Assembly: GCA_944320495.1 (NCBI GenBank)
Contig: CALUHR010000008.1
Location: 32,001 to 96,000 of the forward strand
Direction of reading: 5' to 3'
Source: Candidatus Methanomethylophilaceae archaeon
Lineage (GTDB): Archaea; Thermoplasmatota; Thermoplasmata; Methanomassiliicoccales; Methanomethylophilaceae
DNA length: 64,000 bases
A model generated the notes under the pieces. The model worked only from the letters and a program-made list of their open reading frames with translations, had not been told where the DNA came from and did not search any database. Of the stretch, positions 18,152 through 47,927 are shown piece by piece (position 1 is the first letter of the stretch; each line of letters begins with the position of its first letter). Both the position numbers and the translations under genes were made by a program.

Positions 18152-19441
18152 ATGGGGGATCTCATGGTGACGGGCACGGCATTCTTCGAAGCGGCCGCCG
18201 CCTACAACGATGCACCGGTGAAGAGCGGATTGTGCTCCATATGCAAGGGCGCCCACAGGCTGTGCGGCAAGGACCGCTGCCCCCTGATGATCAAGTTCTA
18301 CTCGCAGCAGAAGACCCGGCCGCTCATAGACGCCAAGGACCTGGCCGGCTCAAGCCCACCGTCCGTCTTCGTGGGACGCTACGGATACCCGAAGGTGGAC
18401 ATCGGACCCCTGGTCCCGCCGGAGTTCGGTGACACCTCCGTAATGGGGAGACCTGAGATGTGGGTCGGGAAGTCGATAGACGAGATCGTCGACATGCGCT
18501 TCCGCCTGGTGAGGGGGAAGTACCGCATCGACGCCACCGACTTCGCGAAGTACGGGCGCATGGTGGACGCGGTCCAGGAGGTGGCGCTGACCGAGCGCCC
18601 CATAGACATAGAGACCACCTTCTCCCAGAAGCCCCGCGGCAGGGTCGTCCTGGACGATGACATCGAGCCCTTCGGTCCTTCGGCCAGGATGGAGGCCATG
18701 TCCATAGGCAACGGGAGGTTCGAGAGGAACCTGGAGAGGTCGTTCTACGACACCGACATGCGCGCCGTGGACGCCGTGGTGTCGGCGTACAGGGGAGGGA
18801 CCCTGATCTCCGAGATCCAGAAGGCCTTCTCTGTTGGAACGATGGGGACCGGCAAGCGCAGGCGCTTCGTCCCCACCAGATGGAGCATCACCGCCGTCGA
18901 CGACATCATAGGCAAGGACCTGCTGAAGACCACCAGGTGGAACCCGACCATCGACGACTTCAGGCTCTACCTCTGGGAGGAGCTGGACAACAGGTGGGCC
19001 ATCCTCCTGATGCCCTGCACCTGGAGGTTCGAGCTCATAGAGGCGTGGTATCCCAACACCACCTGGAACCCCACCGGGAAGACCATAGACGTCATCCACG
19101 ACAGCGAGTTCTTCGACGGCAGGACGGAGTACGCCCACATCGGAGGATGCTACTACGCGTCAAGGATGGCGGTCAACGAGCTGCTCATTAAAGAGGGGAG
19201 GACCGCAGGTGCCGTCATCATGAGGGAGGCCCATCCCGGATACGTTATGCCCGTCGGGGTCTGGAACGTCAGGGAGAACGTCCGCGCCGCTCTGAAGACG
19301 GAGCCCCTCCATTTCGAGACCTACGACCAGGCGATGACCCGTGTGGAGCAGATGATGGACATCAAGCGCGACGGATGGATCGCCAACTCCGACGTGATGA
19401 GGGACTGGCTCGTCCAGAGGAGGATTGAGGACTATTACCGA
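18152..19441 (+). CDS. nreA: Archaeal DNA repair protein Nre; ends at CGA
   Basis: CSICKG...CGKDRCP, SPPSVFVGRYGYP, RFVPTRWSITAVDD, GGCYYA. C-terminal PIP box QRRIEDYY is followed directly by CGA (19439-19441), giving 429 aa; the track gives a 773-aa read-through. Confidence 0.93.
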
Positions 19442-20222
19442 CACGACCCTCGGCGACTTCTCCGGAGAGAGGCTGGAATGGGACGGTCCTTTCCGGATAG
19501 TGGAGTGCGGCAGGGCGCTGTCCCCATCCGGGCTGGACGAGATGGACTACGCCCTGAACCCCTACGGGGGATGCGAGCACGGCTGCATCTACTGCTACGC
19601 CCCGGGACACACCCATTCGGATCTCGCGGGATGGAGGGTCGTCCGCGTCAAGAGGAACGTGATCGACAGGCTGTCCAGGGAGCTGCCCTTCGCGGACGGT
19701 ATAATCGGCATAGGCACGGTCACCGATCCGTACCAGGCCGCAGAGGGCAGGTTCCGCCTGACCAGGGGATGCCTGGAGGTCCTGGCCTCGAGGGGCCGGA
19801 GGATCCACATCCACACCAAATCGGACCTCGTCCTCCGCGACATCGACATCCTGTCGGGGATGGACTGCGTCGTCGGGATCACGTTCACCGGCGTCGATCC
19901 GAGGGTCTCGAAGATGACCGAGCCAGGCGCCCCGCTGCCCGAGGCGAGGCTCCGGGCGATCACCGGCCTCTTGGACGGCGGGGTGCGGACGTACGCCCTG
20001 GTCGCCCCCACCATGTCGACCGCCGAGGGGCACGAGGCGGAGATCATCGATGCCCTCCGTTCCACGGGGGTCCGCCGCGTATACGTGGAACCCCTCAACC
20101 TCAGGCTTGTGGACACCACGCGTCTCGACAGGATGGGCATAACCCCGTCCCCCAAGGCTGTCGCGGAGATGGCCAGACTCTGCCGCGAGGCTGGCATCCT
20201 GGGCATGGGCGTGGTTCGTCGA
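19425..20222 (+). CDS. Radical SAM protein (SplB/Rv2578c-like); ends at CGA
   Basis: NPYGGCEHGCIYCYA (CxxxCxxC), TDPYQ, HTKSD. TTG start overlaps the nre end. CGA at 20220-20222, two codons before TGA. Confidence 0.88.
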
Positions 20223-20619
20223 TATTGAGAACCATTATGAATCGCGATCGTTTCAATCAGACATCTGGGAATTGCGCCATTGCCTTCAGATTGCGAGGGT
20301 CGGAAGGGTTCCTCGATGGACTGGAGAACGGCGATGGAGTTCGTGGGCGCCACTTACGAACTGATCATCCTGTGCTTCGCCTATGGTTCCCCGAACCACT
20401 CCGCCCAGTGTGCCAGAGGGGATTGGGCTGTTGCACGGCCAGATCTCCATGGTCTCCATGTACTACATGTTGAGGACGATCAAACCCTGCTGTTCTTCAA
20501 GATCTCTGACCATCTCGGCAGGAATCCGGCCACCGTAAAGATCCCCCGGTCTCGATATACGGGTGTTTCGCCCCAAGAGGTGTAAGAAGGGAACGACCGA
20601 CAGATCGCCGCCGGCCAGT

Positions 20620-21767: not shown

Positions 21768-22313
21768 TCAAATGGATGCTCCCAGCTTCCTGGCCTCGTC
21801 CAGGTCACCGTGACCCTTGATGTCCCCTACGGCCATGACGCCGCCGCAAAGTACCTTCCCCAGGCTCTTCCAGCCCAGGTGGCGTATGAGGTTGTCATAG
21901 TAGTTCACGACCTCGTCGAAGCCGTCGCCCTCGGCCGCCATGAGAAGGACGCATTCCTTCACCGGGTTCCTGTAGTCCGGGTTGCACTCCGCCACCGCGA
22001 ACAGACGGTCGAACGCCGTCCTGAGCTGACCGCTGAGGTTCCAGTAGTACAACGGGGATGCCAGGACGACGACGTCCGTGGCCTTGTAGGCCGGATAGAT
22101 GTCGTCCATCCCGTCCCTCTGGATGCACGGGTGGTCCGGGTCCTTCCCGCCGCAGAAGCATCCGCGACAGCCGTGGATGTCCATCCCCTGGAGGAAGAAC
22201 GTCTCGACGGTGTTGCCTGCGCCCTCCGCGCCTTCGGTGAACGCCGTGATGAGCTCGGATGTGTTGCCGTTCCTCCTGGGGCTCCCGTTGAGAACAACGA
22301 TCTTCTTTGCCAT
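21768..22313 (-). CDS. NADPH-dependent FMN reductase/flavodoxin-family protein
   Basis: VVLNGSPRRNGNT, CRGCFC, LASPLYYWN. Confidence 0.9.
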   Translation of the reverse strand: MAKKIVVLNGSPRRNGNTSELITAFTEGAEGAGNTVETFFLQGMDIHGCRGCFCGGKDPDHPCIQRDGMDDIYPAYKATDVVVLASPLYYWNLSGQLRTAFDRLFAVAECNPDYRNPVKECVLLMAAEGDGFDEVVNYYDNLIRHLGWKSLGKVLCGGVMAVGDIKGHGDLDEARKLGASI

Positions 22314-23244: not shown

Positions 23245-23330
23245 TGACCGTCTGTAATGAGCATCATATTATCTAACACATTGTTCCTTATCCGCCCCAT
23301 GGCCGAACTAGCGGCCCCGAGGGGAATCCA

Positions 23331-23840
23331 TTGTCGAAGGAACTTATCGCATTCTACTCAAGGGCCGACGAGAACTACTTCGCCGGTTCCTACAGATACG
23401 TGGACGTCGGGAACACCGAGATTGTCGCCGGAATGCTCCAGGAGCTCACCGGGGCCGACATTTTCAAGATTGAGCAGGCGAAGCCCTACTCCAAGGACTA
23501 CAACACCTGCATCGAGGAGGCCAAGGAGCACCAGAGGAGGGACGCGCACCCCGAGCTGAAGTCCTGCCCGAAGAGCATCGACGGGTACGACACGATCTAC
23601 CTAGGCTACCCGAACTACTGGGGGACGATGCCCATGGCCGTCTTCACCTTCCTCGAGAGGTACGACTTCACAGGCAAGACCATCCGACCCTTCTGCACTA
23701 ACGAGGGCAGCGGTCTCGGCAGTAGCGTCTCCGACATCAGTAGCCTCTGCCCCGGGGCCAACATCGAGAAAGGCCTGGCCATCACAGGCGGACAGGCCAG
23801 GGGTTCCCGCCCCTCCCTCGAGCGCTGGCTCAAAGGATGA
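23331..23840 (+). CDS. Flavodoxin
   Basis: FYSRADENY..GNT, YLGYPNYWGTMP, PFCTNEGSG; TTG start. Confidence 0.9.
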   Translation: MSKELIAFYSRADENYFAGSYRYVDVGNTEIVAGMLQELTGADIFKIEQAKPYSKDYNTCIEEAKEHQRRDAHPELKSCPKSIDGYDTIYLGYPNYWGTMPMAVFTFLERYDFTGKTIRPFCTNEGSGLGSSVSDISSLCPGANIEKGLAITGGQARGSRPSLERWLKG

Positions 23841-27309: not shown

Positions 27310-28083
27310 ATGCGCGCAGCGCTATACGCCAGGGTCTCGACGGACGACCAGGCGGTCGAGGGTTTCTCGCTCGACGCCCAGGTCAAGCGCCTCGAGGCCT
27401 ATTGCAGGGTCCGCGGCTGGGAGGTCGGCGGGATCTACAGGGACGAGGGGTTCTCCGGCAGGAACACCAAGCGTCCGGAGTACGAGAGGATGATGCGCGA
27501 GTCCGACTCGTGGGACGTCCTCCTCGTTCTGAAGATGGACCGTATCCACAGGAACAGCGTCAACTTCGCCCGCATGATGGACGACCTGCGCGACATGGGC
27601 AAGGAGTTCAACTCGGTCCAGGAGAAGTTCGACACCACCACCGCCATGGGACGGTTCGTCATGGACATCATGCAGAGGATCGCCCAGCTGGAGAGCGAGC
27701 AGATCGGCGAGAGGACGTTCATGGGCATGGAGTTCAAGGCCCGCAACGGCACCGGAAACCTCGGCTCCGGCCACCCGTACGGATACGTGTACACCGAGCA
27801 CGGCCTGGAGGTCGTGAAGGATGAGGCGCATACGGTGCGCGCGATCTACAACATGTACGTAAGGGGCTCCACCATGGAGGACATCGCCGGATTCCTCAAC
27901 AGCGCCGAGATCCCCGCCAAGAAGGGCGGCAAGTGGAACAGGCAGTCCGTCTGCAACATCCTCCACAACCCGCTCTACGTGGGATACTCGGAGTGGAACG
28001 GCATCCTGCGCAAGGGCGAGCAGCAGCCCATCGTCGAGATGGCGGTCTTCGAGAAGGTCAACGGGCCGTTGGAGATCCAGCGA
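27310..28083 (+). CDS. Serine recombinase 1 (resolvase + recombinase domain); ends at CGA
   Basis: ALYARVSTDDQ, DEGFSG, KMDRIHRN, HNPLYVG. CGA at 28081-28083 overlaps the next ATG (CGATG). Confidence 0.9.
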
Positions 28084-40633: not shown

Positions 40634-41545
40634 TCGGCCCCGCCTCACGTCGATGTCCAGATCGTCCGAGCTCACATAGCCGGCCACGCCAATCTCCATC
40701 GCGCGGATGAGGTGCTTCTCGGCCTCCTCGGTCCTGCCCACCTTCATGAGGGCGCTGGCTAGGTCGTGGTGCAGGGTGACGAGCGCCTCCCTGTCGTAGG
40801 CCATGTGGTTCTCCATCATGCTCTCCATGATACCCACCGCCGCGGTGAGGTCCGCGACGCTGTCCTCGTGCCTTCCAAGGTCGGTCTCGCTGCCGGCCTT
40901 CATGACCAGGTCCATGATTAGCGCGTCCGGCTCCTCCAGGACCCCCCTGGACATTAGGTCCGAGCCGATCGCTATGGCTATCGAGTACTGCTCCACCGAG
41001 GCTTCCACGTTGCCGAGGCCGTCCAGGGCCTCCGCGGCGAGGGAGCGCAGCTCCATGCGCCTGTTGTCCGACCATGGGTCGAAACCGCCTAGGATGTCCA
41101 GCCCCTTGCGGATGAAGGGCTCCGAATCCTCCGGATGCTCGGAATCGATGAGGTTCTCGGAGACTGAGATGCACATCCTGACGATGCTGCGCAGGTCGTA
41201 GTGCCTGGAATCGGGGCCCAGGTCCCCGAGACGCTCGGCCGCGATGTCGTACTCCTCCACAGGGTCGCCGTCCTGGTCGAAGATCAGGGAGCCCATCGTG
41301 ACGTGTATCTTCACGAAGGTGCCCGCGTCGACGCGCACGCCATCGGACTCGAGATCGGCGGCGAGGTCGGCCGCGCTCTCCAGATCGTCCAGAGCGGACG
41401 TGCGGTACTCGAGCATGGCCAGGACGTTTCCGCGGTTGACGTAAGCCTCCAGGAGGTCCCCGCGGTCTCCGCCGTCCTCCAGGGAGTTGACCCTGTCGTT
41501 GAGGTCCTGCAGCGTGTCTTCCAGGTGGGAATCCGTCCTCTCCAT
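40634..41545 (-). CDS. TPR-like helical repeat protein; ends at CGA
   Basis: EAYVNRGNVL, HHDLASALMKVGRTEEAEKHLIRAM; CGA at 40636-40634. Confidence 0.65.
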
Positions 41546-46973: not shown

Positions 46974-47927
46974 TCGCATCCGGGCGGCCAGGAACTCGGC
47001 CGCCTCGGGGCATCCTATCTCGGATGACAGCCTGATCAGCCCCATGCCCTTGCGCTCGTCGGCTTCGATGCCCTCCCCGTTGAGGTACATCAGCCCGAGC
47101 ATGAATATGGCCAGTGGATCCCACGATTCCGCCGCACCCCTGAAGAGGCTTCTGGCGGAGCCGAGGTCCCTCTCCACCCCTAAGCCTGAATAGTACATCA
47201 TCCCCAGCGTGAGCATGGACTCGCGATCGCCGCGTTCCGCCGAGCATGACAGCATCCGGGCGGCCAGGACCTCGTCCTTCGCGACGCCGTCGCCGTACAG
47301 GTAGCGGAGGCCGATCTCCCTCAGCGAGTTGGGCTCCCCGTGCGATGCGGCGATGCCGTACCACTCCACCGCCTTTGCCGGATCCTTCCCCGTCCCCTCG
47401 CCGGTCTCGAACATGCGCGCGACGTTGAACATCGCATCGACGTTGCCATGGTCGGCGGATTTCGAGAAGAGGGCGAACGCCTCAGACCTGTCCAGACGTG
47501 TGCCCCAGCCGTTGTAGTACAGGATCCCTAGGTTGCACTGCGCGCCCGGATGGCCCTGGTCGGCGGCAAGTAGATACCACTTGGCGGCCTCCATCTTGTT
47601 GACCGGTATGCCGAGACCCTTGTCGCAGATGTAGCCGAGTCCGTACTGCGCCTCGGAGTACCCCTGGTCCGCTGCTTTGCGGTACCAGTGGATGGCCTCC
47701 GTCGCATCGGCCGGCATCCCGATCCCGTTGAGCAGGAAGTAGCCGTAGGTGTACTGCGCCTCGGCATATCCGGAACGGGCGGCATCGGAGATGAGGGAGA
47801 CCGCCCTCTTCGGGTCCCTCTCGACGCCGTCGCCTTCGTAACAGCGTCTGCCCAGAATGTACTGCGCCTCGGGATCGCCGCGTTCGGAACGGGCGGTCAG
47901 CTCCAGGATGGAATGGCCGTCGGACAT
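46974..47927 (-). CDS. Sel1-repeat protein; ends at CGA
   Basis: About eight Sel1 units (AQYILG, AQYTYG, AQYGLG, AQCNLG...). CGA at 46976-46974 abuts the convergent gene's TGA. Confidence 0.88.

Follow-up and report, generated by a model that had tools for sequence, protein, structure and literature searches.

The C-terminal PIP box of an archaeal Nre protein anchors CGA as a probable leaky fourth stop codon in a genus of Methanomethylophilaceae

We found that the nre gene of a Candidatus Methanomethylophilaceae archaeon ends on the codon CGA, directly after the PCNA-binding PIP box of its product. About a fifth of the genes in this genome end in the same way, relatives carry TGA or TAA at the same columns, and CGA has been purged from the inside of genes. 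We consider it highly probable that the end of Nre at its C-terminal PIP box is one instance of a genus-wide fourth stop that is interchangeable with TGA. It also seems likely to us that the whole genus of gut methanogens uses a four-stop code, in which CGA would be a leaky stop read by the release factor aRF1 in the presence of a weakened tRNA-Arg(UCG) and a CGA within the aRF1 gene would act as a sensor. No sense-to-stop reassignment would precede it in a free-living cell, and it would be seen here at an ambiguous intermediate stage. The sequence analysed, hereafter the window, is the 64,000-nucleotide stretch G000:C8:32001-96000, where G000 denotes the genome assembly under study (1.77 Mb, 14 contigs, approximately 61% GC); positions given without a contig refer to the window.

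Under translation table 11 the nre frame is open over 18152..20473 (+) and would encode 773 amino acids. Codon 430 of this frame is CGA (19439..19441, +), the sole CGA among the first 430 codons, and the part before it (18152..19438, +; 429 codons from the ATG at 18152) was assigned as the NreA-type coding sequence on the basis of its domains and coding score. An alternative start, the ATG at 18164, gives 425 amino acids, the length usual among orthologues. The translated frame contains both domains of the Nre family, Nre_N (PF04894, residues 37-306, E=2.6e-97) and Nre_C (PF04895, residues 321-428, E=2.6e-36), so the protein belongs to the NreA type; the Nre_C match extends to the final position of the 110-position profile and ends at residue 428 of 429. 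A Cys4 motif, CxxCx6Cx4C (Cys 28, 31, 38 and 43; 18233..18280, +), was read from the N-terminal part of the translation. At the other end, positions 19415-19441 (+) read CAG AGG AGG ATT GAG GAC TAT TAC CGA in the nre frame, exactly as an earlier note on this DNA had stated. The last eight residues before CGA, QRRIEDYY (19415..19438, +), form a PIP box of the type Qxx[ILM]xx[FY][FY], and this motif is C-terminal in the protein only if CGA terminates translation.

Many Nre proteins possess a Cys4 metal-binding domain and a C-terminal PIP motif, and PCNA binding together with a role in repair is known for NreA of Archaeoglobus fulgidus and Haloferax volcanii; in Haloferax, deletion of the PIP motif phenocopies the loss of NreA, and a SplB-like radical SAM gene adjoins nre in many archaea (MacNeill 2016, PMC4929162). 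The protein described here shares with these two NreA proteins a size of about 400 amino acids, restriction to archaea, the combination of Nre_N and Nre_C, the C-terminal PIP box, the N-terminal Cys4 motif and the neighbouring SplB-like gene. No difference from them was found in the protein, and only the stop codon is unusual.

The protein collection holds 7977 Nre homologues, mostly of 423-428 amino acids, and those with named sources come from Methanomethylophilaceae, Methanoplasma and other Methanomassiliicoccales. When the 120 best cluster representatives were compared, 92 were found to end exactly on Q-[RK]-R-[ILMV]-[DE]-[DE]-[FY]-x, which bears out the claim of the earlier note that the motif stands at the extreme C-terminus. 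The remaining representatives comprise 16 with one to seven more residues, 2 that are truncated and 10 that run on. Since 92 of the 120 end on the motif and the Nre_C profile ends at residue 428 of 429, the match to the motif is not due to chance. All 10 run-on proteins belong to close relatives, and each continues with R and then with a tail (1 to approximately 200 extra residues) that differs from the others in both sequence and length; conserved sequence past the PIP motif, which the note had named as evidence against its reading, was seen in none of the orthologues. The extended proteins given by gene callers for relatives measure 433-622 amino acids. Within one 90%-identity cluster, whose members come from NCBI, ENA and Logan assemblies, the 425-residue members stop at the motif and the 430-592-residue members continue after R.

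To make the comparison of orthologous stop codons that the earlier note had proposed, we fetched nre-locus DNA of a further 29 genomes of the order; the column after the PIP box was readable in 28 genomes including G000. This codon is TGA in 17 genomes, TAA in 3 (one outgroup family) and CGA in 8, namely G000, G018, G009, G034, G033, G025, G002 and G006, all of one genus. In a phylogeny built from nre coding DNA, the genomes with CGA are divided between two separately supported clades, each interspersed with TGA genomes; the well-supported branches force at least two independent switches from TGA to CGA, and a parsimony count gives 4 changes for the CGA label and 5 when all three stop states are considered. 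The nre locus thus provides a clean functional anchor for the CGA stop, because the PIP box is defined by its place at the end of the protein. The view that this anchor does not depend on the other cases holds in the sense that it is independent of codon statistics, with the caveat that CGA does not appear to be a clean stop.

The DNA past the CGA gives no sign of encoding a continuation of Nre. With a codon model trained on G000, the body of nre scores +0.385, in this frame only, and the same frame past the CGA scores -0.64. The apparent read-through tail of the table-11 frame (19442..20473, +; 343 codons plus TGA) is non-coding in the nre frame, its 343 residues matched no family in a Pfam search, and the tails of relatives do not resemble one another. 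Read as arginine, CGA would add Arg and 343 residues, in agreement with the 344 meaningless residues predicted in the note. The overlap of this tail with a radical SAM gene was confirmed as well: the +1 frame over the same DNA has a coding score of +0.25 and contains a PF04055 radical SAM domain with a CxxxCxxC cluster. This SplB-like gene occupies 19425..20222 (+); its start is probably the TTG at 19425, and in outgroups an ATG aligns with the ATT at 19434. It is itself terminated by a CGA (20220-20222), two codons before a TGA (20226-20228), and among its orthologues the first CGA lies 216-221 codons past the Cys motif in 10 of 22 congeners, the others having a standard stop at 215-222. The DNA past the nre stop column remains alignable because it is the start of this gene. 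In the radical SAM frame, which overlaps this stop, the C of the nre CGA closes a Thr codon, ACC; the base that varies among genomes is thus a Thr third position (ACT/ACC), which makes the T-to-C change in nre silent for the downstream gene. The base at +4 of the nre CGA is C, as at the CGA within the aRF1 gene, and since the next standard stop is 343 codons away, any leak at this codon would be costly.

The behaviour of CGA at nre recurs throughout the genome. When an in-frame CGA followed 50 clearly coding codons, the sequence after it was non-coding-like in 92% of 103 cases, and the remaining 60 sense codons each gave 1-9% in this test. The ends of coding stretches in G000 (n=1141) comprise 860 TGA, 230 CGA, 27 TAG and 24 TAA; CGA ends therefore make up approximately 20% of gene ends and occur on 13 of the 14 contigs, and TAA and TAG together account for <5%, TGA being dominant in this order. 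A stricter count of internal against terminal occurrences gave 3:212 for CGA, 290:120 for CGG and 664:106 for CGT. The third-position composition of coding stretches holds up to the base before the terminal CGA. Codon statistics played no part in a further test, in which the 60 residues preceding each terminal CGA were aligned to the pieces of three congeners. Among alignments that extended to the final residue, the next codon of the relatives was a standard stop or CGA at 44 of 57 CGA ends, with 275 of 311 for TGA-ended controls.

Past a terminal CGA, the next in-frame standard stop follows after a median of 23.5 codons and lies >100 codons away in 27% of cases, much as past TGA. Selection for backup stops is weak (median 23.5 versus 31 codons, p=0.08), and the excess within 5 codons can be neutral. 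Apart from a preference for T at +4, no shared context was found at terminal CGAs. Downstream genes lie in any frame, 26% of them as CGATG overlaps in the other frame, and 16.5% of CGA ends are followed by TCG, compared with 5% after TGA.

Internal CGAs have nearly disappeared, and those left in 1.77 Mb are found at Arg78 of aRF1, at a GmhA/GmhB-like junction and in a flavodoxin gene. The flavodoxin gene (PF12682, window 23277-23840) carries its CGA at 23685-23687, within the Pfam domain, where the closest relatives have AGG; either this CGA is read through as arginine, or the gene is truncated 50 codons early. At G000:C13:193618-194718 (-), a GmhA-like (SIS-type) and a GmhB-like (HAD-type) reading frame are joined in frame by a CGA at 194145, with no obvious start after it, and the junction may be a read-through fusion.

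Within the genus, gene ends on CGA are unevenly distributed: approximately 20% in G000, 11% in G013 and approximately 3% in G031 and G015, the congener counts being those of fetched genome pieces. The same pieces contain 0, 2 and 0 internal CGAs in G013, G031 and G015, respectively. Since internal CGA is equally rare and the share of CGA ends ranges from 3 to 20%, the loss of internal CGA looks genus-wide and the use of CGA as a terminator looks to have grown to differing extents. In outgroup families CGA is an ordinary arginine codon, as judged from their aRF1 genes (including those of G042, an outgroup of 42% GC), each of which contains as many as five CGAs at places that differ between genes.

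The single aRF1 gene of G000 (locus L052, G000:C2:85936-87165, -) has only one in-frame CGA, at codon 78, which encodes a conserved arginine 20 residues past the N of the NIKS motif, and its frame is open and conserved across this codon. Each of the 34 genus copies read across this column has CGA there, and outgroups use other Arg codons. A 35th, divergent copy (G005:C189) has Lys at column 78 and a CGA at Arg25 instead, which hints that the presence of a CGA inside aRF1 is itself under selection. The assembly from which this copy comes, G005, is contaminated and holds two aRF1 types (L091 at G005:C189 and L227 at G005:C255), one of them with the usual CGA at Arg78. Conserved rare codons flank the aRF1 CGA, with [GT]CT on its 5' side and CTN, then mostly AAA, on its 3' side, and its context, U-CGA-C, is uncommon at terminal CGAs. 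The bacterial prfB gene uses an in-frame UGA as feedback on the synthesis of release factor 2. The aRF1 gene resembles it in holding its own presumed target codon in frame and early in the gene, which suggests a negative feedback here as well; in prfB a +1 frameshift is needed to finish the protein, whereas in aRF1 plain read-through by tRNA-Arg would restore the conserved arginine.

Genus-specific changes in aRF1 lie beside NIKS: Q replaces Y/F where human eRF1 has F56, and M replaces R where it has R68, the equivalences being taken from the NIKS and YxC motifs, which are both offset by a constant +3. In two congeners (G001 and G012) aRF1 carries NIRS instead of NIKS. Peptide release at CGA, including a single CGA at a gene end, is known for yeast eRF1/eRF3; it competes with tRNA-Arg and is raised by UGA-biased mutants of L123 (F, R and Y) (Wada and Ito 2018, PMC7379694). 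The aRF1 of the genus has Arg at the position of yeast L123 (YRCDSTF). Because outgroup aRF1s share this residue, it can be at most a predisposition.

The gene of the cognate tRNA-Arg(UCG) is retained in G000 (C13:413317-413390), so CGA does not resemble a stop codon that has lost its tRNA. In total, 45 tRNA genes were found in G000 by aragorn without intron search, and the intron search added Trp and Tyr. Copies of tRNA-Arg(UCG) were collected from other genomes by BLAST with the G000 tRNA and, for the outgroups, with an outgroup tRNA; the loci compared were G000:C13:413317-413390, L032-L049 and L197-L226. In all 24 outgroup copies, which come from six other families, the anticodon stem is paired at five positions and the loop reads CUUCGRA. 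All 24 genus copies have one non-pair in this stem, at 31-39 (A-A, C-A or U-C) in 18 genomes and at 27-43 in 6, and in these 6 the near-universal U33 is replaced by C33. The remaining pairs of the stem show compensatory changes, from which it follows that the gene is maintained and functional and that some CGA must be read as arginine. The genus tRNA evolves fast (79-91% identity among species), and the copies of the six other families are much more alike. In 13 of the 37 genus genomes, G000 being counted among the 37, the tRNA gene was not resolved, for which incompleteness is a possible reason. Given the retained tRNA and the in-frame CGAs in aRF1 and the flavodoxin gene, CGA is probably not a clean stop.

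We propose the following mechanism, which would account for these features. The single aRF1 would recognise CGA besides UGA, that is YGA, by accepting either C or U at the first position, and the genus-specific substitutions beside NIKS are candidates for the underlying change in specificity. It would compete with the retained tRNA-Arg(UCG), whose weakening would let aRF1 win at most CGAs, so that termination would be efficient without being absolute. When aRF1 is plentiful, its own translation would terminate at codon 78, and when it is scarce, arginine would be inserted and the protein completed, by analogy with the feedback at the prfB UGA. At the nre/radical SAM overlap, TGA could have become CGA by a T-to-C change that is synonymous downstream (ACT to ACC, both Thr).

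An unlikely reading, but one to be taken seriously, holds that CGA is a "hungry", effectively unassigned codon, at which ribosomes stall and are then rescued (by aPelota/ABCE1 with peptidyl-tRNA hydrolase, or by drop-off) without recognition by aRF1. The aberrant anticodon arm in every genus tRNA copy would fit this, as would the near absence of CGA from the inside of genes even where few genes end on it, which is consistent with loss before capture. Yet eRF1-type factors are able to read CGA (PMC7379694), and rescue gives no reason why aRF1, alone among conserved genes, should keep an in-frame CGA in the genus copies read; in addition, stalling at 20% of gene ends would be expensive, and CGA and TGA replace each other freely at a given column, even inside one 90% cluster. 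A standard code with C-to-U editing of the mRNA, by which CGA would become UGA, has very little probability in our judgement. The two codons differ at the edited base only, and editing of this kind makes stops in plant organelles, but the genome-wide purge of in-frame CGA calls for a rule that applies to the codon rather than to single sites, the T preference at +4 is the only shared context found, and both the conserved CGA of aRF1 and the altered tRNA would be left unexplained. To our knowledge, mRNA editing has not been described in archaea.

The two readings particular to nre are still harder to sustain than editing, and we regard each as close to untenable. If the CGA were a +1 frameshift site yielding an Nre-SplB fusion protein, it would be understandable that the radical SAM gene overlaps the CGA in the +1 frame, and the two genes are indeed neighbours in many archaea (PMC4929162). 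However, the same overlap occurs with TGA or TAA in 20 other genomes, the PIP box would no longer be C-terminal, and elsewhere in the genome the genes downstream of CGA lie in any frame, including the CGATG overlaps and six convergent pairs that end on CGATCG. An ordinary arginine codon within a genuine 773-residue protein, or else a pseudogene or an error of assembly or sequencing, would agree with a frame that is open under table 11 and with the proteins of 433-622 residues called in relatives. Against this, the tail has neither coding signal nor domain nor conservation and overlaps a real gene, and the same CGA is present in independent NCBI, ENA and Logan assemblies; genes that end on CGA are moreover spread across several species and over 13 of the 14 contigs. 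Termination at CGA by aRF1, competing with a weakened tRNA, is the explanation that we prefer.

Three other candidates were rejected. A change that is confined to the window, or that was planted, is ruled out because other contigs and other species have CGA ends too. That the coding signal is lost through frameshift or indel errors is ruled out by the third-position composition and by orthologues that end at the exact column. As to an artefact of methylation or of a sequence motif, CGATCG accounts for a minority only (16.5% of CGA ends), and the same CGAs appear in independent assemblies.

Sense codons that became stops are found in organellar codes: AGA/AGG in vertebrate mitochondria (table 2), UCA in Scenedesmus (table 22) and UUA in Thraustochytrium (table 23); related surveys are available (PMC6821328 and PMC12574857). 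We know of no sense-to-stop code change outside mitochondria. As in these codes, a sense codon here marks gene ends and has vanished from gene interiors; in contrast to them, the genome is archaeal and the codon is CGA, which places the case outside tables 2, 22 and 23. Organellar genomes are also tiny, with a few dozen genes, whereas this is a 1.77 Mb archaeon of free-living type with approximately 230 CGA-ended genes, an eRF1-type factor, a cognate tRNA that is kept and an in-frame CGA in the release-factor gene. The closest biochemical likeness is the misdecoding of CGA by yeast eRF1/eRF3, in which release by an eRF1-family factor likewise competes with tRNA-Arg, although it is a weak side reaction in reporters there and here a fifth of the genes end regularly on CGA (PMC7379694). 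Codons with two outcomes set by tRNA against release factor are known from UAG, read as pyrrolysine or stop in methanogens (PMC12626013), and from UAA, read as Glu or stop in Blastocrithidia (PMC12153298); in both of these, stops gained a sense meaning, whereas here a sense codon gained a stop meaning.

Among archaea, two Njordarchaeales assemblies have CGG as Trp and lack CGA in known domains, a tRNA-UCG was not found in them, and a CGA stop was raised as a possibility (bioRxiv 10.64898/2026.04.02.715157). The likeness to our case lies in an archaeon without CGA in conserved domains. The differences are that those genomes belong to another phylum, that no tRNA-UCG was found there, and that the study did not include gene ends and makes no mention of Methanomassiliicoccales. 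The same work states that the Codetta and KACI screens are unable to infer stop codons, because of which a cellular sense-to-stop case would have been missed. In full-text searches of the literature we found no description of a CGA stop in Methanomassiliicoccales, nor for any free-living organism. The following is new here: the PIP box serves as an anchor for the stop; a single column alternates between TGA and CGA, even among members of a 90% cluster; the switch is silent in the gene that overlaps nre; congeners differ in their share of CGA ends; and the tRNA-Arg(UCG) of the genus is consistently defective.

If this reading is correct, the public annotation of the genus is wrong for 3-20% of genes, depending on the species, with run-on reading frames (the 773-residue "Nre" and its relatives of 433-622 residues), spurious fusions and hidden downstream genes. 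The genus would offer a natural system at the ambiguous intermediate stage of codon capture, in which one can see the tRNA as well as the release factor and a probable feedback loop, and one could test directly in it how factors of the eRF1 type distinguish U from C as the first base of a codon.

Several minor observations concern individual gene ends. Codon periodicity often continues after TAG in G000, as expected for users of pyrrolysine; a search with aragorn found no tRNA-Pyl gene in this genome. In the window, further CGA gene ends lie on the plus strand at 28081, 46241, 52931 and 55871 and on the minus strand at 40636, 46976 and 58275 (first CGA base on that strand); three of these seven are CGATG overlaps, and at 46976 the next standard stop is 301 codons off. 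Six convergent gene pairs of G000 end back to back on the palindrome CGATCG, at C14:5979-5984, C13:504936-504941, C13:480192-480197, C13:91302-91307, C8:104526-104531 and C3:57417-57422. Finally, a Pelota-like gene on contig G000:C1, recognised by a weak aRF1 match at C1:21757-22086, also appears to end on a CGA, at 22225 (+), with 424 open codons after it.
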